Assembly: GCA_964438405.1 (NCBI GenBank)
Contig: CAYTKF010000001.1
Location: 18,860-82,859, forward strand
From: an uncultured Candidatus Saccharibacteria bacterium
Lineage (GTDB): Bacteria > Patescibacteriota > Minisyncoccia > UBA9983
Reading direction: 5' to 3'
Length of the DNA: 64,000 nucleotides
Shown here: positions 10,931-59,774 of the stretch, in pieces
Layout of the letters: the number at the start of each line of letters is the position of its first letter
Position numbering within the stretch: position 1 is the first letter of the stretch
Program-made: the position numbers and the translations under genes
Notes under the pieces: model-generated
Databases searched by the model: none
What the model saw: only the letters and a program-made list of their open reading frames with translations
Told to the model about the DNA's origin: nothing

Positions 10931-11593
10931 TTATTGTTTTATTATTGCGCTCTTGAGTAAATTCTTAAAATAATATAAAACTTTCTCATCAGTCATTTCT
11001 TTTACAAGAAATATTTTCACAAGGGGCTTTATATTAAAAAAATCTTTTAAGAATTCTATTTCTTCTATACAAGGGAAAGGATGAACCCAAACGCTTTTCT
11101 GACACTGATAAAAATTAAGATCTTCCAATTTATTTCTAAGCGAGTCTCTAATTTTTCTTTGGTTTTCCGGTATGTCAAAAATAACAAGCCGCCAATTTCC
11201 ATCCCAATTTTTTGGGACACTAATTTTTAATTCATCAAGGATAAACTTTTTAATTTTTTTCTTTCCATTTTCAGTAACAGTATAAATAAGACAATCTTCT
11301 TCTTCTTTTAAAAATTCCAAATTGTGTTTTTGTTTTAATTTATTAAAGGTATACCATATTTTTCTATATTCTTCGTAACTTTCTCTTTTTTGCCTTTGTC
11401 TTATTTTTTCTATTATTCCTAAAACGTTAGGGAAGGCGACGCCAAAGGTTAAAATTCCTCCGGTAGCTATTAATGCAAGGGTGGCATTAAGAGTAGTTTT
11501 GGCTTTAGAGTTTTCTTTTATTATCCTTAAAAGATACTTTTTAAGGTTTGGTTCTAGGGTTGTTTCAAATTTTATCGGTTTGTGTTTAGGCAT
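10931..11593 (-). CDS. PaaX-family transcriptional regulator-like protein (paralog 1)
   Basis: NWDGNWRLVIFDIPENQRKIRDSLRNKLEDLNFYQCQKSVWVHP parallels the WDGKW...LW.GFG...P core of PaaX. Paralogous to 48177..48734. Confidence 0.5.
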   Translation of the reverse strand: MPKHKPIKFETTLEPNLKKYLLRIIKENSKAKTTLNATLALIATGGILTFGVAFPNVLGIIEKIRQRQKRESYEEYRKIWYTFNKLKQKHNLEFLKEEEDCLIYTVTENGKKKIKKFILDELKISVPKNWDGNWRLVIFDIPENQRKIRDSLRNKLEDLNFYQCQKSVWVHPFPCIEEIEFLKDFFNIKPLVKIFLVKEMTDEKVLYYFKNLLKSAIIKQ

Positions 11594-28100: not shown

Positions 28101-28755
28101 AACTTCACGCGTAATTTATGACACAGTTTCGCACGCAATTCTTGGCGATGCGCCGAATTACGGATACGCGTTTTCAACGATTGAGGACACTGCAACAACA
28201 ACCAGCCATTCTGTTACAATAACCGGTTTGGCGGCCGGCACTACTTATTATTACCGCGTAATTTCTCACGCTTCGCCCGAATCAGTGAGTTCTGAACACA
28301 ACTTTTCTACTGTCCAACAGCAAACTCCGCCTTCTAGTGGACCAGTTGGCGGCGGTGGTGGAGGTGGTGGAGGTGGTGGAGGTAATGGACCTGTTGGAGA
28401 TCTTTTATCTTTAACAACCCCTCCAACTCCCACAAATCCTCCAGTTAGCGGACCGGTTATAACCACAACTGGCGCAGGAGAAGAAAATCCAACTCCTCCA
28501 ACACCTCCAGTTCCAACAGGAGAAGGAGCAGGAATTACAGGAGAAATCGGCGCTAACACAGGTGGCGCAACAACTAGCGAAGAAACTGGCAATAATCTTG
28601 CCGCAGCAGCTGCAAGCCAGGAAAACGGTAGAAGCTTTGGCAGTATGCTCGCCTCTGTCTTTGGCGCAATCGGAAGCTGGTGGTGGCTGCTCCTGCTCAT
28701 CATTATCTTAATCATCATCTGGCTCATAAAACGTTCTCTGGACAAAAAGAATTAA
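25132..28755 (+). CDS. Giant cell-surface adhesin-like protein: signal peptide, repeated SdrD/Cna-B-like and Ig-like domains, FN3-like domain, poly-Gly/Pro-Thr stalk, C-terminal TM anchor
   Basis: 1207 aa. Recurring GKKFEDLNGDH...NGNYKF.NLLPGDY.VSE..GW modules (Cna B/SdrD-B-like), G14 run, PTPPTP stalk, C-terminal WWWLLLLIIILIIIWLIKR. Confidence 0.6.
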   Translation: MKNFNSRAANAILLAVSMVVYIIAPVLSFAPQVSYATQPVSSYIVSIDTINDDPPTEACLVSPVTIIGSGQVINGQGSGSDQYHIEINWGDGTLENGIVINPTPDPGGDKKTFSFSYTATHSTSVTSTQIKVRLYHGAPPGNDAQADAVISVSVCVAPPTTAVLNVKKIVVNNNGGTATSSDFTLRLKSATTTNDISGSPFSGSTAGKDFILSPGPYVAGEDAFSGYSSAITGNCAADGTITLSAGQNYSCTITNTELPPTPTTGSISGKKFEDLNGDHVRTNETTDPDLPDWTIRLDLIGSSDAPNCESGQTPVASVNGEFCEVLTDSNGNYKFINLLPGDYIVSEVLQDGWTQTRPNADYGGQGRQADGTYHLTLSAGQNINDRQFGNKQSPTTGSLQVDKVAIGGDSMFSFTGDNGITGFDITTSGGTGSLTISDLLPGVYNIFETIKAGWDELNDCTNVNVTVGNTTNCTFTNTARGSITVHKNVVAPDGQTDVSDNHNFTVTLNGDNSQTLNETTSVSYTDLIPNQQYTVTEDMDSDYSQVSITGDCVSDGTITLNPGQDAVCTITNAQKQGTLTVIKHVINHGIGTADANDFSFIINDGQPTAFTADEGSLEGQNTIAVDPGTYTVSEPSVQGYAASYNNCTDVAIPSNGSATCTITNSDIPPGDGAITVFKTLPNDNGGTATVADFPLWITDSDDPQNPISAANGQANFLAAGHNYTVSETNPNEILGYNQSISCYDGQTPLDGSTITVVENHVYTCTITNDDMPVSLTLNKTVITDNGGTAQASDWTLTAKGPITLSGVGPTVSSTTLSAGTYTLSESSGPTGYTASNWSCQGGTLNGDVLTLVLGDNATCGITNDDQPSYISGAKFEDVNYNKIWDDGETGIVGWVINLFKEQQLVASTTTGEVGTYQFTNVSPGTYTLTETAQDGWIQTTDAPAPIDMTQGTTSANNNFGNYKKIVISNENSQDPTETSVVITWDTDRPATSRVIYDTVSHAILGDAPNYGYAFSTIEDTATTTSHSVTITGLAAGTTYYYRVISHASPESVSSEHNFSTVQQQTPPSSGPVGGGGGGGGGGGGNGPVGDLLSLTTPPTPTNPPVSGPVITTTGAGEENPTPPTPPVPTGEGAGITGEIGANTGGATTSEETGNNLAAAAASQENGRSFGSMLASVFGAIGSWWWLLLLIIILIIIWLIKRSLDKKN

Positions 28756-32507: not shown

Positions 32508-33320
32508 ATGAACGGAAATTTTGAAAATACAAAAAAACCTGAAGAAACAATACCTTATGACTCTCCGAAAGAGTTAGCCAATTTTATTTCAAGAGAAAGA
32601 TTACCCATTGATTATAGTTTGGTTATTAATGATAATACTAAAGTTATCGCATTAGGAGAATCACACATGGATAGCACCGCAAAAAAAGAAGTTAAAAATT
32701 CTCTGACGCAATTTAAACAATTAAAATTTACTCATCTAGGATTAGAATTTTTGGGGACTGATTTACAGCCTGTTTTAGATAATTACGTAAGAGGAAAAAA
32801 CAAAAAAGATGAAGAAATATTATTAGAACATTTTAAAACTTATTCTGAAAGAGATGGTGAATTATATCTTGAAATTGTTAAGGAGGCAATATCACTAGGA
32901 ATTAAGATTGTGGCGTTGGATTTACCACAAAAAGAAAAAGATTATTATGAAGAAAGCAATACTATAGAACTTCAGCAAAAAAGAAATCCCTTTATGGCAC
33001 AAAGAGTAGAAAACATTTTATCTGGGAATAAAGAATATAGAGTAATAACTTTCAGTGGCAACGGACATATACAAAATATAGACGAAGGAACAGGGTCAAT
33101 AGTTGTTAATTTAAGAGATAAAAACATCTCTGTTGTGACCATAAATTTTTCCGGACGTCTGATAGAAAAAGGATATCCTTATTCTTATCAGGGCCCCAGC
33201 ATTAGCGAATGCGTTCAAAGTGCTGGGTTAGCCTCAGAAAAGTTTATATTGCCTGCCCAGACAAAATTCCCAGAGATTAACATTCCTTTTGATTGGATTA
33301 TCTATTTGTCCGAAAAATAA
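32508..33320 (+). CDS. ChaN-like (Tiki/TraB-superfamily, PF04187-like) protein inserted between mreC and the mreD-like gene
   Basis: VIALGESHMD...THLGLEFLGTDLQPVLDNYVRG...YLEIVKEAISLGIKIVALDLP parallels the GE.H / gmE.f / ldrY / AlnlP signature blocks of the ChaN family. Confidence 0.4.
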   Translation: MNGNFENTKKPEETIPYDSPKELANFISRERLPIDYSLVINDNTKVIALGESHMDSTAKKEVKNSLTQFKQLKFTHLGLEFLGTDLQPVLDNYVRGKNKKDEEILLEHFKTYSERDGELYLEIVKEAISLGIKIVALDLPQKEKDYYEESNTIELQQKRNPFMAQRVENILSGNKEYRVITFSGNGHIQNIDEGTGSIVVNLRDKNISVVTINFSGRLIEKGYPYSYQGPSISECVQSAGLASEKFILPAQTKFPEINIPFDWIIYLSEK

Positions 33321-41469: not shown

Positions 41470-41541
41470 GGCCCTTTCGTCTAGCGGCTAGGACATCGCC
41501 CTCTCACGGCGGAAACACGGGTTCAATTCCCGTAGGGGTCA
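41470..41541 (+). tRNA. tRNA-Glu (anticodon CUC)
   Basis: GGCCCUUUCGUCUAGCGGCUAGGACAUCGCCCUCUCACGGCGGAAACACGGGUUCAAUUCCCGUAGGGGUCA. Cloverleaf with anticodon loop CUCUCAC, T-loop GGUUCAAUUCC. Close to E. coli tRNA-Glu. CCA not encoded. Confidence 0.8.
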
Positions 41542-48176: not shown

Positions 48177-48734
48177 ATGGCTATAAAAATAAAAAGCGAA
48201 ACGAAACAAAAAATTCTACTTTTGCTTTTGGCGGGTTTGGCGTTAGGAATGTCAAAAACACCCAAAAGATATTTTAAGGTACTGAAAACTATTCCCAAAG
48301 AATGGAAAGATATAAAAAGAAGACAATTATTGGATGCTGTCCGCGAATTTTATAACAATAGAATCGTTGATTATAAAGAACTAAATGATGGCACAGTAGA
48401 AGTTGTCTTAACAAAAGAGGGAAGAAAGAGAGCGTTAATTTTTAAAATTGACGAAATGGAAATTAAAAAACCAGATAAGTGGGATGGCAAATGGAGAATA
48501 GTTATTTTTGATATTCCGGAAAAGAAGAGGGCAGCCAGATTTGCATTAAGAAACAAACTTAAAGATCTTGGTTTTAAAGAATTACAGAAAAGCGTTTTTG
48601 TTCATCCTTACGAATGCGAGGATGAAATTGATTTTATTGTAGAAGTATTTGAAATTAGACCCTATGTAAAATTCTTAAGAACAGATTCTTTTACAAATGA
48701 TGAACAATTTAAATTAAAATTTAAGATTTATTAA
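48177..48734 (+). CDS. PaaX-family transcriptional regulator-like protein (paralog 2)
   Basis: KWDGKWRIVIFDIPEKKRAARFALRNKLKDLGFKELQKSVFVHPYE. N-terminal wHTH-like segment KQKILLLLLAGLALG. Confidence 0.5.
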   Translation: MAIKIKSETKQKILLLLLAGLALGMSKTPKRYFKVLKTIPKEWKDIKRRQLLDAVREFYNNRIVDYKELNDGTVEVVLTKEGRKRALIFKIDEMEIKKPDKWDGKWRIVIFDIPEKKRAARFALRNKLKDLGFKELQKSVFVHPYECEDEIDFIVEVFEIRPYVKFLRTDSFTNDEQFKLKFKIY

Positions 48735-50002: not shown

Positions 50003-51368
50003 TATCAAATCCTTTTTCTGTATCTTCTATTTCAAAACCAAGATTTTTGATTTTTTGGCGCAATTTGTCGGCTTCCTGCCAATTGCCTGATTTACGCAAT
50101 GCCATACGTTTTTCCGCGAGCTCTATAACTTCTTGCGGAATTTTTTCTGGCTGCTCCGCAATATTTTCAGCAATTTTTAAACCTAAAACTTTGTCAAAAT
50201 CTAATAGAGTCGCCATCTTTAAGTCATCAGATAAGTCTGATTTTAATAATTCCTGAACTACTGCCAAGGCCTGTGGGGTGTTAAAATCGTCGGAAATAAC
50301 ATCAATGAATTTATTTTTGTATTCTTCGCTTACCTCTCCGACACTATTTTTTAATTCTCGTATTTCACTATATAAATTTTTTAATCCGTTTTCTGCCGCC
50401 TTCAATGCCTGCCATGTAAAATTTTGTTTTGAGCGGTAATGCGCCTGCAGGAAAAAATAGCGCAGGGCGAGCGGGTCAAATCCTTTTTCTTTAACTTCTG
50501 CCAGACTGAAACCAGTGCCTTCGGATTTGGCCATCTTTTTACCATCAACCAAAAGATGTTCGTTGTGCACCCAGTAATTTGCAAGGGGTACCCCGTCATT
50601 TACTGCCTCGCTTTGGGCAATCTCGTTTGTGTGGTGAATGGGAATATGCTCAATTCCGCCCATGTGAATATCAATTGTTTTTCCTAAAAATCTTTTTATC
50701 ATTGCCGAACATTCAATGTGCCAGCCAGGAAATCCTTCACCCCATTCTGAAGGCCATATTTGCAAAGCATTGGCGTGTTTGCCTTTTTTAAAAAACCAGA
50801 GAGCGAAATCAGCGGGATACTTTTTATTTTTGTCGTTTGGTTCTGTTTTTTGTTCTTCCAAAATTTGGCCGGACAAACGATTATAATTTTTGGCTTTTAA
50901 TACATCAAAATAAATTGCCAAATCTGTCTGATATGCAAAACCTTTATCAAACAAAATTTTTATCATCTCTAAAATTTCGTTAATATTTTCCGTTGCTCGG
51001 GACTTGATATTTGGTTCAAGATTATTGAGTTCAGCAGTATCTTGTTCAAAAATTTTTATATACTTATCGGCAATTTCTTTGGGAGAAATTTTTTCTTTCG
51101 TAGCGCTCACATCCATTTTATCCTCGCCTTCGTCAGAATCACTGGTCAAATGCCCGACATCAGTATAATTGCGAAGAAAATTTACATCATAACCAATATA
51201 TCTTAAAAAACGGTTAATTATATCAGCCATTGTCATTGCACGCAGATTACCAATATGCTGTGTCCAGTAAACCGTGGGCCCGCACTGGTAAAATTTCACC
51301 TTATTATTTTCAAGTGTCTTAAAAATTTCTTTTTTGCCAGAAAGCGTATTGTAAATTTTTATATCCAT
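49974..51368 (-). CDS. cysS: Cysteinyl-tRNA synthetase
   Basis: CGPTVYWTQHIGN (HIGH-type), KMAKSEGT (KMSKS), zinc-binding Cys. Internal start MDIKIYN chosen. Confidence 0.85.
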   Translation of the reverse strand: MDIKIYNTLSGKKEIFKTLENNKVKFYQCGPTVYWTQHIGNLRAMTMADIINRFLRYIGYDVNFLRNYTDVGHLTSDSDEGEDKMDVSATKEKISPKEIADKYIKIFEQDTAELNNLEPNIKSRATENINEILEMIKILFDKGFAYQTDLAIYFDVLKAKNYNRLSGQILEEQKTEPNDKNKKYPADFALWFFKKGKHANALQIWPSEWGEGFPGWHIECSAMIKRFLGKTIDIHMGGIEHIPIHHTNEIAQSEAVNDGVPLANYWVHNEHLLVDGKKMAKSEGTGFSLAEVKEKGFDPLALRYFFLQAHYRSKQNFTWQALKAAENGLKNLYSEIRELKNSVGEVSEEYKNKFIDVISDDFNTPQALAVVQELLKSDLSDDLKMATLLDFDKVLGLKIAENIAEQPEKIPQEVIELAEKRMALRKSGNWQEADKLRQKIKNLGFEIEDTEKGFDITRALGQGR

Positions 51369-52276
51369 TTTCTGCGTTTGAAGAAAAATAAGAGAGATGA
51401 TGCTGAGACAAACATTATGCCGGTAATTATCCAAAAATCGCCTTTCATGCCGACAATGGGCGTTGATATAAGATTGCTCATTCCAAAAAGCGCGGCAAAA
51501 AGCATGAGCGGAAAGGTGATGAAAGAAACAATGGTCAGAGTTCTCATGATGTCATTAACCTTATCTGTCAAAAGAGAATCGTTTGTATTGTGCAAAGATT
51601 CAATAGTGGCAACACAATTTTCCATCAGCGTCTTGACCCGGTCAAGATTGCCAAGAATAACGTTGGCATAATGAACAAAATCTTTGTTGAAAAATTTTTC
51701 TCCGATAATTTTAAAAGAATTCAAAATAGATTCATGGCTGTGGATGGCGCGCTGGAAATCAAGCGTATCCCTGCGCAGATAAGAAATATATGCGACCATC
51801 TCTTTTTCGTGGCCTTTAAAAATATTTTCCTCTATGTCGTTTATTTTGAGCTGAATATGGTCCAGCTGCCTTAGGGCAAATTCATAAAGCTGTTTAATTA
51901 TAAAAGTGCTCAAAACTCCGCTGTTTTTTACAAGTTGTTCTTCGCCCAAAATAGACCCAACCTCAAAAAGTTTTGTTATTTCATGAAAAAGAGAAATCTC
52001 TTTGTAATGGGCGGCGATAAGAAAATTTTTGCCCATTACAAAATCAACCTCATAACTTATTGATGTTTTTTTGTTGTTGTCAAAAATGGGGAAGTGAAGA
52101 ATAAGATATATAAAATTTTTATAAGCATCCACCCTCGGCCTTATTGTGGGTTTAAGAAGTTCTTCTGCCACAGCTGGATGAATATAATATTTTTGCATCA
52201 AAGACTTGACCTCATCTGCTGTCGGGTCTTCCAGATCTACCCAGGTTAAATTTTTATGCTTGTAAGTGGAAAGCAT
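51359..52276 (-). CDS. corA: CorA-family divalent cation transporter
   Basis: Cytoplasmic N-domain plus 2 C-terminal TM helices with FGMSNL (GMN-like) signature. Confidence 0.6.
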   Translation of the reverse strand: MLSTYKHKNLTWVDLEDPTADEVKSLMQKYYIHPAVAEELLKPTIRPRVDAYKNFIYLILHFPIFDNNKKTSISYEVDFVMGKNFLIAAHYKEISLFHEITKLFEVGSILGEEQLVKNSGVLSTFIIKQLYEFALRQLDHIQLKINDIEENIFKGHEKEMVAYISYLRRDTLDFQRAIHSHESILNSFKIIGEKFFNKDFVHYANVILGNLDRVKTLMENCVATIESLHNTNDSLLTDKVNDIMRTLTIVSFITFPLMLFAALFGMSNLISTPIVGMKGDFWIITGIMFVSASSLLFFFKRRKWI

Positions 52277-52302
52277 GTCTTTATTTTGATTATATCTTTT
52301 TC

Positions 52303-53538
52303 TTGTGTATAATGGAAGCTATGGAAAAAAGAAAAAGAATAATTTCCCTGCTTGCCGCAATTATTCTGCTTGCGGCTGTTTTTTCTGGTGGCGCTCTTTT
52401 TGGTTATGCCAACCGGCCGGCCATGGAAAGGGTTGTTGGCATTTTAAATAAACAAAGCCCGGCCTCTGGCCCAGAAAATATTGATTTTTCTCCGTTTTGG
52501 GGCGCATGGAACACAGTAGAATCAAAATATGTTTCCGCTTCCAGCACTGACAGGCAAAAAATGGTCTGGGGTGCCATACAAGGGATGGTGGGTTCTTTGG
52601 GAGACCCATATTCAACTTTCTTCCCTCCGCAGGAAAATAAGGCATTTAACGATGAACTTAAGGGAAACTTTGCTGGAGTGGGAATGGAGATAAGCGTCAA
52701 AAACGGCATTTTGATTGTTGTATCGCCCTTGAAAAACACACCAGCGGAAAGAGCGGGAATAAAATCCGGCGACTCCATTTTAAAAATCAATGATAAAACA
52801 ACAGAAGGCATGATGGCAGACCAGGCAGCCTCGCTTATAAGAGGCGATGTCGGCACAACTGTCAAGCTCAATATACTTCATAAAAACAGCAGTAAACCGG
52901 TTGATTTAACAATAACAAGAGACATTATCAAAATTCCAATAATTGACACTGAAACAAAATCAGACGGCATTTTTGTCATCAAACTTTACAGCTTTTCCGA
53001 AAATTCAGCCAATGAATTTAGAAGTGCCCTGCGCCAGTTTATAGAATCCGGCAACACCAAATTAGTTCTCGATCTACGTAATAATCCGGGCGGATATCTG
53101 GAAGCAGCTGTTGATATGGCCAGCTGGTTTTTACCAATCGGCGATGTAGTTGCCAGAGAAAAATTTTCTACTGGAGACGAAACAATTTTCAGAAGCAAGG
53201 GCTATGACATGTTTAAAAATTTGCCGTTTGTGATTTTAGTAAATGAAGGAAGCGCCTCTGCCTCAGAAATTTTGTCAGGCGCCTTAAGAGAACACGGCAA
53301 GGCAAAACTTGTTGGCGCAAAAACTTTCGGCAAGGGCTCGGTACAAGAACTTTTTCCAATTACCTCGGACACGTCGTTAAAACTTACCATTGCCAAATGG
53401 CTGACACCCAATGGCATATCAATTTCAGACCAAGGCCTTGAGCCGGATTACAAAGTGGAAATTACCGATAAAGACGCCACCGCAAACAAAGACCCCCAAA
53501 TGGACAAAGCAATAGAAATTCTCAATAATTGGAAATAA
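52303..53538 (+). CDS. ctpA: Carboxyl-terminal processing protease (S41, CtpA-like) with PDZ domain
   Basis: PDZ segment GVGMEISVKNGILIVVSPLKNTPAERAGIKSGDSIL; catalytic NEGSASASEIL (Ser) and TFGKGSVQ (Lys). Confidence 0.8.
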   Translation: MCIMEAMEKRKRIISLLAAIILLAAVFSGGALFGYANRPAMERVVGILNKQSPASGPENIDFSPFWGAWNTVESKYVSASSTDRQKMVWGAIQGMVGSLGDPYSTFFPPQENKAFNDELKGNFAGVGMEISVKNGILIVVSPLKNTPAERAGIKSGDSILKINDKTTEGMMADQAASLIRGDVGTTVKLNILHKNSSKPVDLTITRDIIKIPIIDTETKSDGIFVIKLYSFSENSANEFRSALRQFIESGNTKLVLDLRNNPGGYLEAAVDMASWFLPIGDVVAREKFSTGDETIFRSKGYDMFKNLPFVILVNEGSASASEILSGALREHGKAKLVGAKTFGKGSVQELFPITSDTSLKLTIAKWLTPNGISISDQGLEPDYKVEITDKDATANKDPQMDKAIEILNNWK

Positions 53539-53593
53539 AAACCAAGTAAAAATTCTTTATTTTAAGCCGTATTTTGGCAAACACAAATTGTGC

Positions 53594-53622
53594 TTGACTT
53601 TTTAATTTGGTTGATATATGAT
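53594..53622 (+). promoter_or_regulatory. Near-consensus sigma70-type promoter
   Basis: TTGACT-17 nt-TATGAT, about 70 nt upstream of the 53691 start. RBS aggagaaaagg. Confidence 0.55.
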
Positions 53623-53690
53623 ATAAGTGGAATTAAGATCTTTAAATCGGCCCCTCGCGAGCCATAAATCGCAGGAGAAAAGGTAAGGTT

Positions 53691-54062
53691 ATGAATCAAC
53701 CAAGGAACCAAAACCCGGTGGTCCTTGTTGTTTTAGGGATCACTTTCATGATTCTTTTCGTGGCTGTCGGCTTGTATGGCAACTCCGGAGACAACGAATT
53801 TGTGGCCGGGACTCTTGCCCTGGCCTGTATCGCGGAGTTTTACACCGGCCTGTTGTACGCGATCGGTGCCACATTTCGCAGTGCTGCTCTGACTGGAATC
53901 GCTTTTGCTGGAGTATTACTGGTGGGTGGGGTAATGTTCGCCACCACCACTTTCTTCCTGACCAAAATCGTGGCAGTTTTATTTCCAATTGCCACCCACT
54001 TTTTCTTCATCCGCCGGCAACTCGGCCACGACAACGATTCGCCGGGAGCTGAAACAAAGTAA
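53691..54062 (+). CDS. Small polytopic membrane protein encoded in a GC-rich (about 50%) island
   Basis: 123 aa, 3-4 TM helices (VVLVVLGITFMILFVAVGLYG, LALACIAEFYTGLLYAIG, AFAGVLLVGGVMFATTTFFL). Composition differs sharply from the flanks. Confidence 0.5.
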   Translation: MNQPRNQNPVVLVVLGITFMILFVAVGLYGNSGDNEFVAGTLALACIAEFYTGLLYAIGATFRSAALTGIAFAGVLLVGGVMFATTTFFLTKIVAVLFPIATHFFFIRRQLGHDNDSPGAETK

Positions 54063-54097
54063 GCAGTTCTTTTTCTATCTGGTTCAACCAGATGGAG

Positions 54098-54127
54098 CCA
54101 CTCGAGAAATCGGGTGGTGTTTTTTTG
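54098..54127 (+). terminator. Intrinsic terminator after the GC-rich gene
   Basis: ccactc-gagaaatc-gggtgg followed by tgttttttt. Confidence 0.55.
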
Positions 54128-54192
54128 TTTGTTTTTAAGGCAAACCCTTACGGAGCCTTTTTGTTTTTTAAAAAACATGCTATAAATTTAAT

Positions 54193-54525
54193 ATGATTAT
54201 CAAAGAGAAAATTTCGAAGGAAGAATTTGATAAGCTTTTTAATGCTTTTTACGGCACGGTTTTAAAGATGACGGTTGATATAGAAAAAAATATTTTGTCA
54301 GCCGGATGCGAATTTCATATTGAATGTTCCGAAGAACTTGTGGAAAAAGAAAGTTCTGAACAAAAAAATCTCTGGGGCGCAAATCTCTATAGAAAAGATA
54401 TGTCAATTGATTATAATTCTCTTATTAACATCAAGCCGATGGAAAATAACAGGTCAATGGAAATTCAGGATTCAGCAATAAAACAAAGGGTTGAAAAAAT
54501 AATTAAAGATTTATTATGCAATTAG
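54193..54525 (+). CDS. Hypothetical protein
   Basis: 110 aa; overlaps the next ORF by 10 nt; no known motif. Confidence 0.3.
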   Translation: MIIKEKISKEEFDKLFNAFYGTVLKMTVDIEKNILSAGCEFHIECSEELVEKESSEQKNLWGANLYRKDMSIDYNSLINIKPMENNRSMEIQDSAIKQRVEKIIKDLLCN

Positions 54526-54785
54526 AACGCTGGAAAAAATTTTCAAAAGGACAGCAGATGGGAGCAATTGCCGCTGAGATTGCCCGCGCCAAAACTTGGC
54601 AGAATCAAGACCAAGAAAAATTTTTATCTGCCATCGAAAGGGGACTGGAACTTATTGATTCCTCTATAGATGATGATAAATGGCGCGGCTGGCGTTCAAT
54701 GCTTTTTGGTTTAAGAAATGAACTGGCTAATTTTTATTTAAATAATTCTTATAAAGATATTAATATTTTGTACACAGCCATTTGA
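54516..54785 (+). CDS. Hypothetical protein
   Basis: 89 aa, helical, Trp-rich (WRGWRSMLFGLRNELANFYL). Confidence 0.3.
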   Translation: MQLERWKKFSKGQQMGAIAAEIARAKTWQNQDQEKFLSAIERGLELIDSSIDDDKWRGWRSMLFGLRNELANFYLNNSYKDINILYTAI

Positions 54786-54828
54786 CAACTTTTATCTCTT
54801 TTGCTATCATCTAAATACAACAAAATAA

Positions 54829-55044
54829 ATGGCAGATAGGTCTGAAAAAACAGCTATAGGGACTGTGATCGAGGCGCTGCCGAACGCCTCTTTCCGCGTG
54901 CGTCTGGATGACGGTGCGGAAATTTTTTCTTACCTGGCCGGCAAAATGCGCATGTATAAAATTAGAGTTCTTGTCGGCGATAAAGTGAAAATAGAAATGG
55001 ATCCATACGGCGGAACAAAAGGAAGAATAATTCAACGTTTATAA
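54829..55044 (+). CDS. infA: Translation initiation factor IF-1
   Basis: [59 protein letters not shown]. Confidence 0.9.
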
Positions 55045-55048
55045 TAAA

Positions 55049-55165
55049 ATGAAGGTTAAGGCGTCAATTAAAAAAATTTGCAGGGATTGCAAGATGGTCA
55101 AACGCAGGGGCTGTATTTATGTCATCTGCAAAAAAAATCCCAAGCATAAACAAAGACAGGGATAA
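55049..55165 (+). CDS. rpmJ: 50S ribosomal protein L36
   Basis: [38 protein letters not shown]; C-x2-C...C-x4-H zinc ribbon. Not in the ORF track because under 60 aa. Confidence 0.8.
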
Positions 55166-55373
55166 TAATGGCTTGGCCCACGATTTGGAGCCAAAGGCGA
55201 ACAAATTGTGGTTGCCAAACATTACCCCGCCCTCTCTTCTGTTATTTTTATCAAAGAGGACGGAATAAAAATTATGAAATATTTTGAAAAATTAAAAGTA
55301 AAAAATAAAAATGAGAGGGGCGGGGTGCTCAATTTTATAATTGCTCACTTCGCTCGCAAATAAAATTGGCATG
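55165..55373 (+). repeat. 209-bp intergenic element, copy 1 (rpmJ stop to rpsM start), containing a 101-nt stem-loop and a 29-codon sORF
   Basis: Identical to 55748..55956 by visual alignment over all 209 nt. Arms ccccgccctctc (55225) and gagaggggcgggg (55313). sORF 55274..55363 MKYFEKLKVKNKNERGGVLNFIIAHFARK with RBS aaagagga. Confidence 0.8.
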
Positions 55374-55751
55374 CGTATCGCTGGAACAAACATACCGGAT
55401 AATAAAAGACTGGAGATTGCATTAACCTATGTTTTTGGCATTGGCAGAACGCGGGCAAAAGAAATTTTAAAAGGCGCGCAAATTTCCATAGACAAAAAAG
55501 CAAAAGATTTATCTGAAAAAGAATCTAATTCTATCAGGGAATTTGTGGAAAAATATAAAATAGAAGAAGAATTGCGCAGAGAAATTTCCTCTAATATCAA
55601 AAGGTTAAAAGAAATTAAGGCCTACCGCGGTATGCGCCATTCAAGAAAACTGCCTGTGCGCGGACAAAGAACCAAAACTAATTCCCGCACAAACAGAGGC
55701 AATGTCAGAGTAACCATGGGCAGTGGAAGAAGGAAATTGGAAAAGACATAA
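55371..55751 (+). CDS. rpsM: 30S ribosomal protein S13
   Basis: MRIAGTNIPDNKRLEIALTYVFGIGRTRAKEIL...C-terminal RGQRTKTNSRTNRG. Start is the ATG at the end of the repeat; the tracked N-extension MLTSLANKIG is repeat-encoded. Confidence 0.85.
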   Translation: MRIAGTNIPDNKRLEIALTYVFGIGRTRAKEILKGAQISIDKKAKDLSEKESNSIREFVEKYKIEEELRREISSNIKRLKEIKAYRGMRHSRKLPVRGQRTKTNSRTNRGNVRVTMGSGRRKLEKT

Positions 55752-55956
55752 TGGCTTGGCCCACGATTTGGAGCCAAAGGCGAACAAATTGTGGTTGCCA
55801 AACATTACCCCGCCCTCTCTTCTGTTATTTTTATCAAAGAGGACGGAATAAAAATTATGAAATATTTTGAAAAATTAAAAGTAAAAAATAAAAATGAGAG
55901 GGGCGGGGTGCTCAATTTTATAATTGCTCACTTCGCTCGCAAATAAAATTGGCATG
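55748..55956 (+). repeat. 209-bp intergenic element, copy 2 (rpsM stop to rpsK start)
   Basis: Perfect copy of 55165..55373; sORF copy at 55857..55946. Confidence 0.8.
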
Positions 55957-56388
55957 GGTAAAAAACGAATTATAACAAAAGAGGGAGCGGTCGTTGACCA
56001 GGAGCTTAAGGCCCGGTCGCTCAGCAAGATGCCGAAGAAAAAAATCACCAGCGCTGTTTTAAATGTGCAGTCAACTTTTAATAATACTCTCATCAGCCTC
56101 TCAGACAAAAAAGGCAATACCATAATGTGGTCATCAAGCGGAGCACTGGGATTCAAGGGCGCGAAAAAAGGCACCCCTTTTGCCGCATCAAAAGTTGCTG
56201 AACTTCTGGCTGACAAAGCAAAGACAATGGGAATTAAAGATATTGATGTTGTTATTAAGGGCGTTGGGGCTGGCAGAGAGTCGGCTGTCAGAACCTTCAG
56301 TAGCCGGGGTTTTGAAATAAATCTTATCCGCGACGAAACCCCGATTCCGCATAACGGCCCCAAACCGCCCAAACCACGCAGGGTATAA
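55954..56388 (+). CDS. rpsK: 30S ribosomal protein S11
   Basis: VLNVQSTFNNTLISLSDKKGNTIMWSSSGALGFKGAKKGTPFAA...C-terminal PHNGPKPPKPRRV. Confidence 0.85.
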   Translation: MGKKRIITKEGAVVDQELKARSLSKMPKKKITSAVLNVQSTFNNTLISLSDKKGNTIMWSSSGALGFKGAKKGTPFAASKVAELLADKAKTMGIKDIDVVIKGVGAGRESAVRTFSSRGFEINLIRDETPIPHNGPKPPKPRRV

Positions 56389-59489: not shown

Positions 59490-59774
59490 ATGCTTAAATT
59501 AAAAAATGCTATTAATGCAATTAAAGAAGAAAATTATGATACGGCGATTAAAATTTGCCAAGATCTTAAAAATTTAGAAATAACAGAATTACTTAATAGA
59601 TATAACATTGATAAACATAGCCATGGTCATTATTTAAGACGCGGAGAAAGATTAAGCAAAGACGGATTTCCGCGTGAAAAAATTTTACAAATGATTGAGG
59701 CGGAAATAGAAAATCCTCCAAGGGTCATTTCAAGGGCTGATTGGACCGGTCATCATAAAGAAAGAAATCAATAG
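59490..59774 (+). CDS. Hypothetical protein
   Basis: 94 aa; no motif. Confidence 0.3.
   Translation: MLKLKNAINAIKEENYDTAIKICQDLKNLEITELLNRYNIDKHSHGHYLRRGERLSKDGFPREKILQMIEAEIENPPRVISRADWTGHHKERNQ

Follow-up and report, generated by a model that had tools for sequence, protein, structure and literature searches.

A self-contained orphan membrane-protein gene cassette, probably laterally acquired, between ctpA and infA of a CPR bacterium

The 64,000-nt stretch of DNA analysed here (the window) comes from an uncultured Candidatus Saccharibacteria bacterium and contains a small GC-rich gene, ORF123, whose ATG lies 152 nt past the end of ctpA (52303..53538). The order of genes is murG, cysS(-), corA(-), ctpA, ORF123, a DUF5674 gene, its 89-aa partner, infA, rpmJ, rpsM, rpsK, rpsD, rpoA and rplQ (Table 1). 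The flanks are core cellular genes, from murG to ctpA upstream and from infA to rpoA downstream. The window is ≥99.98% identical to Parcubacteria group bacterium Athens0714_24 (GCA_007376735.1) and to several ENA assemblies. The sequence of the element itself is identical in five assemblies of the strain; these may go back to related samples from a single site and are only partly independent. The deviant GC content of the cassette and the metagenomic source of the sequence would fit DNA of another organism mis-joined into the contig of a metagenome-assembled genome. However, the same sequence with the same junctions is found in the window, in GCA_007376735.1 and in three ENA assemblies built with different k-mers. 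The cassette is also bounded precisely by a stop codon on one side and a promoter on the other, and the AT-rich flanks bearing its promoter and terminator are continuous with host sequence. We find an assembly chimera exceedingly unlikely.

Table 1. Features of the ctpA–infA interval; positions are those of the window, and L102 and L103 are related genomes
Feature	Position	Strand	Basis or remarks
Extra DNA relative to the empty L102 junction	53540..54781 (1242 bp)	.	Holds the ORF123 cassette and the DUF5674 pair; blastn
Sigma-70-type promoter match, TTGACT-17-TATGAT	53594..53622 (-35, 53594-53599; -10, 53617-53622)	+	10/12 consensus match
Predicted 5' leader, ~61 nt	53630..53690	+	SD-like AGGAG, 53673-53677; AAGG, 53681-53684 and 53685-53688
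ORF123 CDS, 123-aa orphan integral membrane protein, ~4 predicted TM helices	53691..54062	+	Periodicity, hydropathy, GC3 58%
Predicted intrinsic terminator	54074..54127	+	Hairpins 54074-54096 (10 bp) and 54097-54118 (9 bp), then T7, 54120-54126
Third, weaker hairpin AAGGC...GCCTT, then T-rich run	54137..54169	+	Fold
DUF5674 gene	54193..54525	+	Pfam PF18924, E=3.8e-28; 30% GC; outside the ORF123 transcription unit, inside the shared extra DNA
89-aa conserved DUF5674 partner	54516..54785	+	10-nt overlap with DUF5674; stop codon within the infA -35 hexamer
infA operon promoter, TTGACA-17-TATCAT	54782..54810	+	11/12, TG-extended; right-hand junction anchor, conserved in L102 and L103

The ctpA|infA junction is a variable spot at which ORF123 is not conserved. 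In L102, whose CtpA is 76% identical, 7 nt lie between the ctpA stop codon and the -35 hexamer of the infA promoter. By blastn, positions 1-2267 of L102 correspond to 51265-53539 of the window and 2275-2660 to 54782-55166; since just 7 nt stand in place of 1242 bp, the interval in between is extra DNA. At the same junction, L103-L105 (CtpA 73% identical) carry an unrelated 1302-bp insert with a 152-aa secreted protein and a tRNA-Thr. With one relative empty and the others differently filled, the junction is variable, and the comparison of presence and absence proposed with the original prediction thus shows the module not to be conserved. The genes of the window flanking the junction align with these relatives at 70-83% DNA identity, and no ORF123 homologue is found there. 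Relatives at about 70% identity keep the arrangement ctpA-rplI-pyrG-rpmA. Likewise, the 80 species-level relatives retrieved through CtpA (≤66% identity) mostly have corA-ctpA followed by rplI and rpmA, not infA. ORF123 is in none of the 80, and in none of them did we find a small TM protein downstream of ctpA that could be its positional analogue; a 123-aa "3-TM" ORF in L047 was discarded as an artefact of a GT-rich stretch. We take the difference as probably a gain here and not a loss in L102, on a comparison of three genomes and no tree.

ORF123 shares the extra DNA with the two small overlapping ORFs (54193..54785) that had been noticed just upstream of infA. These are real genes, DUF5674 and a conserved partner that has no Pfam match. 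Tblastn places the partner beside DUF5674 also in L088-L092, L094, L098 and L099. Elsewhere the pair occurs in other contexts, its closest orthologues (L083 and L094) following a tRNA cluster and preceding trpS, and in 10 other loci no small TM gene lies next to it. The difference in GC content, 51% for ORF123 against 33% for the pair, suggests that the two have different histories. A search of the literature on Athens0714 and on DUF5674 found nothing.

ORF123 is most likely a real protein-coding gene. Its base usage is position-specific (G1 0.37, T2 0.41, C3 0.37), and the three-base periodicity is clear (p=4e-6, chi2=35). The open frame spans 138 codons, a length that just 42 of 5000 composition-matched shuffles attained (0.8%). 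The Kyte-Doolittle hydropathy of the product peaks at residues 10-28, 37-55, 60-78 and 80-98. A single-sequence AF2 model, which is weak (pLDDT 72.9, pTM 0.40), has helices at 8-30, 36-61 and 65-115 and fuses the third and fourth. Both agree with the 3-4 TM helices originally predicted for the 123-aa protein. In our reading of the sequence, R5, R63 and R108/R109/K123 lie on one side of the membrane and an acidic loop with D34 and E36 on the opposite side, which puts five Lys/Arg residues in the cytoplasm and one outside. This positive-inside pattern is consistent with a four-helix, N-in/C-in topology, and several hydrophobic helices of ~20 aa combined with such charges are what integral membrane proteins generally have. 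The glutamate E49, within predicted helix 2, is the sole membrane-embedded Glu. There are two candidate start codons: the ATG at 53691, and a GTG at 53718 that gives the 114-aa product of the NCBI annotation.

In AT-rich genomes, an island of high GC that has a promoter and a terminator to itself is often an RNA gene, and we considered whether a structured non-coding RNA lies between the two signals, with the 123-codon frame accidental. The whole 500-nt unit does fold at z=-3.24, the protein has no homologue, and few stop codons are expected in A-poor sequence. However, the hairpins of the terminator account for the excess folding: against shuffles, the 3' region (54055-54190) has z=-4.05, the body of the ORF z=-1.43 and the leader (53625-53720) z=+0.25. 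Rfam gives no family even at E≤1, and ARAGORN finds no tmRNA in the element. The codon periodicity, the rarity of so long a frame among shuffles, and the ordered hydrophobic segments with their positive-inside charges also oppose an RNA gene. As only the terminators fold beyond expectation and the ORF has codon periodicity, we rejected an RNA gene as very improbable. Periodicity, four hydrophobic segments with positive-inside charges, and an ORF body without excess folding lead us to take ORF123 as protein-coding.

The minus strand offers little in its place. It has no folding excess over the unit (z=-1.56), the one promoter-like match that it has there, near the 5' end, scores 9/12 (53646-53618), and its ORFs of 112 aa and 80 aa are basic, low-complexity shadow ORFs with no Pfam match. 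A type I toxin-antitoxin system (a toxin of <60 aa with a single TM helix, and an overlapping antisense RNA) was rejected as well, given a product of 123 aa with about four TM helices and the minus-strand z score.

The unit appears to carry its own expression signals. The near-consensus promoter, the ribosome-binding site and the terminator of the original prediction are all present in the sequence. From the promoter we place the predicted start of transcription near 53629. In the AT-rich window, matches of >=10/12 have a density of 0.44 per kb per strand, so the promoter is plausible by its position and is not significant alone. The leader that follows has no stable structure by the fold given above, and its SD-like AGGAG is joined by two AAGG motifs. 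This is an exception in the host. An SD-like 4-mer lies upstream of just 4 of the 56 genes in the window, and in 19 of the 56 a -10 box (>=5/6) ends 4-10 nt before the start codon, compared with 5.4% at random positions, which suggests that leaderless or near-leaderless mRNAs are widespread. ORF123 has instead a predicted leader of ~61 nt with all three motifs. At the other end, the tandem hairpins and the T7 run form a predicted terminator that the folding of the 3' region marks as strong, and the third hairpin could be a remnant or serve as a second, back-up terminator. Promoter, terminator and start codon are known from consensus and folding; the signals are read in the sequence, and their use is inferred.

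The most conspicuous property of ORF123 is its composition. Its GC content is ~51% (51.1-51.5%), against 39.6% for the whole window with a standard deviation of 4.6% across 372-bp windows. The best 372-bp window over the gene has 51.9% GC, 2.7 sd above the mean and second in rank. The top peak, 53.8% at 28325, lies within a 1207-aa ORF where the GC excess falls on the first two codon positions and not on the third. The maximal GC-rich segment runs from 53648 to 54051 (404 bp, 52.5% GC), which is approximately the CDS plus 43 nt of leader, and bears out the GC-rich stretch of ~440 bp that had been described. The background of roughly 36% given with it fits the flanks (34-35%) but not the window mean. 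From the ctpA stop codon to the ATG the flank has 33.6% GC, and from the ORF123 stop codon to the DUF5674 ATG 35.4%, both host-like. The GC3 of ORF123, 58.5%, is the highest among 64 ORFs in the window (mean 37.8%, sd 6.3), although its statistics are based on just 123 codons. The adjoining genes have 30-42% GC and a GC3 of 31-40%.

Amino-acid composition alone, the explanation that the original prediction had set against itself, does not account for this excess. Holding the amino-acid sequence fixed and drawing codons from the window's own usage in 10,000 resamplings, we expected a GC of 44.4±1.5% for an observed 51.5%, and a GC3 of 39.2±4.2% for an observed 58.5% (z≈4.6); none of the 10,000 reached the observed GC3. 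Since the resampling predicts 44.4% GC, amino-acid composition explains about 40% of the GC excess. Hydrophobicity does no better. Host proteins as hydrophobic as that of ORF123 (GRAVY 0.82-0.98) have a GC3 of 0.37-0.45, and ORF123 sits 3.1 sd over the regression of GC3 on GRAVY among the proteins of the window.

A third possibility is that ORF123 is an old native gene that evolves too fast for homologues to be recognised and that was lost from L102 and replaced in L103. Its high GC3 would then come from codon bias linked to expression from a strong promoter, and not from a foreign origin. The ribosomal-protein genes of the window prefer C-ending codons too, with C/(C+T) at third positions of 0.46-0.55 compared with a mean of 0.39. 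The promoter and terminator of ORF123 lie in flanks at host-like 34-35% GC, and CPR genomes have numerous lineage-specific small membrane proteins. However, in ORF123 C-ending and G-ending codons are both enriched, whereas in the ribosomal-protein genes only the C-ending ones are. G/(G+A) is 0.55 in ORF123 against 0.32±0.08 and is not raised in the ribosomal-protein genes, which argues against a simple expression-linked codon bias. Amino-acid composition, hydrophobicity and expression-type codon bias were thus each tested as the source of the GC content, and each was insufficient. The SD motif and the long leader are atypical of the host as well. Furthermore, relatives with 73-76% identical CtpA, whose neighbouring genes still align well, have no homologue, and the ancestral ctpA-rplI arrangement has no such gene either. 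We regard a native origin as rather improbable.

Homologues were sought widely. A word-indexed search of 5.8 billion protein clusters matched the ORF123 protein to itself alone, and an exhaustive phmmer (HMMER) search of 1.84 billion representative proteins likewise found it alone. Back-translated scans of viral and metagenome contigs and tblastn against phage and plasmid collections gave no homologue. Neither a PDB sequence search nor the profiles of Pfam, PHROGs, NCBIfam and PADLOC gave a significant match; the best PADLOC score, to "4TM Effector", has E=0.12 and is non-significant. Foldseek with the weak AF2 model against BFVD and PDB gave matches of E≥2.3 at best. By these searches the protein is a strict orphan, in keeping with the earlier statement that no homologue could be named.

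An orphan at a junction that turns over could also be a recent de novo ORF, or what is left, after decay of an insertion, of a larger foreign membrane protein, for instance the C-terminal part of an ABC-2-type permease; in both cases it may be functionless. The best sub-threshold Pfam match, which covers positions 213-317 of the 347 in the ABC2_membrane_3 profile (E=0.0047), points weakly towards such a permease. Its 16.5 bits are, however, far under the gathering threshold of 31.6 bits and typical of matches due to TM-helix composition. There is no frame-shifted continuation upstream, where ctpA ends well short of the ATG, and the exhaustive search gave no parent family. The unit also looks orderly: the ORF is intact, its leader has an SD-like motif, and a promoter and a strong terminator enclose it. 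We think a remnant or de novo ORF quite improbable.

Taken together, our results indicate that ORF123 is probably the gene of a self-contained, monocistronic, laterally acquired accessory cassette, which is missing from the two nearest relatives in our sample that have the same ctpA|infA junction. The coding region is probably foreign and recently acquired, given its synonymous-site GC, its SD-type signal, the lack of a homologue and the variable junction. Of the claim that this is a horizontally acquired single-gene module, acquisition is supported, on GC3 and the empty site in L102; a single-gene insertion is less certain, because the 1242 bp include the DUF5674 pair. "Single-gene" describes the transcription unit and not necessarily the insertion event. 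In the scheme we propose, RNA polymerase would start at the sigma-70-type promoter and produce a transcript of ~500 nt with its ~61-nt leader, ending at the tandem-hairpin/T7 terminator. This transcript would be translated into the 123-aa protein, or into one of 114 aa from the alternative GTG. The protein would then insert in the cytoplasmic membrane with about four helices, both termini cytoplasmic and E49 inside helix 2. Around the cassette we found neither an integrase or prophage gene nor a tRNA or target-site duplication, and the repeats flanking the extra DNA do not go beyond chance. The sole tRNA of the window is at 41470, and none lies in or next to the extra DNA.

The anatomy of the cassette resembles that of phage morons, which are defined by their own promoter and terminator, a deviant GC content and being extra DNA relative to relatives (PMC3594210). 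By consensus and folding, ORF123 likewise has its own predicted promoter (10/12) and terminator. It differs in GC content (51%, GC3 58%) from the adjoining genes, and it lies in extra DNA between genes that are adjacent in L102, although this DNA includes the DUF5674 pair. Gene 15 of HK97, the first moron to be described, codes for a small protein of the inner membrane (Juhala et al. 2000, reviewed in PMC3594210), comparable to the small predicted membrane protein of ORF123. However, ORF123 has no similarity in sequence or fold to gp15/YebO or to any PHROG family, and its neighbours are core chromosomal genes of a CPR bacterium and not those of a phage or prophage. We call the cassette moron-like, and not a moron, because it is outside a prophage. 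Morons often encode protective or envelope-modifying functions, and by this analogy the ORF123 protein may have such a role, for instance in excluding incoming DNA or toxins; we offer this as a doubtful suggestion. A holin or toxin role is less likely than a protective one. Searches of PHROGs, PADLOC, Pfam, NCBIfam, PDB and folds lend no support to the toxin, holin or immunity protein that the original prediction gave as examples.

Other small four-TM proteins are similar in outline, among them holins (Phage_holin_4, LrgA/CidA), the SMR protein EmrE and 4TM defence effectors: they have 110-130 aa, about four TM helices and short loops. ORF123 differs from them in having no significant profile match and no endolysin, sensor or partner gene adjoining it. 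A holin was rejected on finding no PHROGs, Pfam or NCBIfam holin match, BFVD holin matches of E≥8 with probability ≤0.07, and no lysin gene nearby. With SMR proteins ORF123 shares a membrane-embedded acidic residue, E49. In EmrE this Glu is in helix 1, whereas that of ORF123 is in predicted helix 2. This placement, and the lack of a Pfam Multi_Drug_Res match at E≤1, led us to reject the SMR family.

ORFan genes in genomic islets are a broader comparison. Like them, ORF123 is an orphan of atypical composition, found at a variable junction and restricted to a strain or species. Unlike them, it stands out by its unusually sharp limits, as a single gene with a full set of expression signals, and by several independent marks of foreign origin: GC3, the leader and the SD-like motif. 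CPR genomes often have small membrane proteins that are orphans, and by itself ORF123 is an ordinary kind of finding. It is nevertheless a clean example, with four independent foreign marks on one gene, namely synonymous GC, an SD-type signal, a long leader and no homologue. The empty site can be demonstrated in a relative, and the anatomy of a phage moron recurs here among core chromosomal genes. Should the cassette be expressed, streamlined episymbiont genomes would still acquire autonomous genes and wire them in at specific junctions. ORF123 would then also be a tractable candidate for heterologous expression, as cargo with a possible role at the envelope.

Integron gene cassettes are likewise single-gene inserts of foreign composition at a recurrent insertion point. 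ORF123 differs in having its own promoter, the Rfam scan shows no attC-like match, and there is no integrase among the flanking genes. A more far-reaching idea is that ORF123 founds a new family of membrane proteins, of which it is as yet the sole member, and was delivered by an integrase-independent insertion of cassettes that targets very short intergenic spacers of this streamlined genome; we rate this as highly speculative. Close by, two identical, strongly structured inserts of ~205 nt occupy the rpmJ|rpsM and rpsM|rpsK spacers, and relatives are without them. These two spacer inserts and the differing cargo at ctpA|infA would be in line with an uncharacterised mode of gaining small inserts in CPR bacteria.

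Judged from the sequences compared, the ctpA-infA junction is a variable spot within the clade. Its content differs between the window, which carries the orphan membrane-protein gene ORF123, and its closest sampled relatives. The relatives L103-L105 have a different cargo between ctpA and infA, a 152-aa secreted ORF with a tRNA-Thr. In more distant relatives, the junction is replaced by the order ctpA-rplI-pyrG-rpmA. A 123-aa 'membrane' ORF lying 3' of ctpA in another relative, L047, was considered and rejected as spurious, being the product of a GT-rich stretch (L047 7400-7800), where GC skew is as high as 0.93 and AT skew as low as -0.69.

Coordinates of outlier ORFs, repeat copies and junction contents (window positions unless a locus is named)
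Feature	Position	Strand	Remarks
Low-GC outlier ORF	10931-11593	(-)	
Low-GC outlier ORF	48177-48734		PaaX_M and weak Cas2 Pfam matches
Low-GC outlier ORF	59490-59774		
Low-GC outlier ORF	32508-33320		
213-nt direct repeat, copy 1	55165-55377		rpmJ-rpsM spacer, ribosomal-protein operon
213-nt direct repeat, copy 2	55748-55960		rpsM-rpsK spacer, ribosomal-protein operon
ctpA-infA junction, L102	L102 2264-2275		empty
ctpA-infA junction, L103	L103 6225-7526		152-aa secreted ORF, tRNA-Thr
ctpA-infA junction, window	53540-54781		ORF123, DUF5674 pair

The DUF5674 gene and a small partner ORF (about 90-118 aa) adjoin as a conserved pair, both in the window (54193-54785, with an overlap of 10 nt) and in the compared loci L083 and L084-L099. 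The window copy of the partner has no Pfam match; by tblastn, the partner was detected in at least eight metagenome loci of 45-50% GC. At L086, a locus of 30% GC, a small ORF without a match to the partner occupies its position beside DUF5674. The neighbourhoods of the pair differ, with a tRNA cluster, trpS or, on the upstream side, an 87-aa ORF that looks HTH-like by eye.

The four low-GC outlier ORFs of the window (28.5-31.5% GC, GC3 0.20-0.24) deviate in the direction opposite to ORF123. The one with Pfam matches has no counterpart in L103, where the FtsW-murG gap is about 100 nt.

Only two copies of the 213-nt repeat occur within the window, each filling its spacer; they are identical, or differ by one mismatch when compared by blastn. 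The repeat RNA is predicted to be strongly structured (fold z=-6.09), and one element of the fold is a long-range stem of 13 bp without mismatch. In L102 and L103 the corresponding spacers are only 8-15 nt, and other assemblies of the window strain stop inside the repeat. The repeat is possibly an insert with a regulatory role or of MITE-like type. A 14-nt stretch overlapping the ORF123 -35 box (ACAAATTGTGCTTG, 53583-53596) matches the repeat at 13/14 positions (55201-55214 / 55784-55797), within its first hairpin, and the 34 nt at 53924-53957 show 76% complementarity to the same repeat region. Both short resemblances are probably due to chance.

Across the 56 gene starts of the whole window, Shine-Dalgarno motifs are nearly absent (4/56). 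Because a -10 box often ends 4-10 nt 5' of the start codon (19 of the 56 genes, versus 5.4% at random positions), the sequence suggests that leaderless mRNAs are numerous in this genome.
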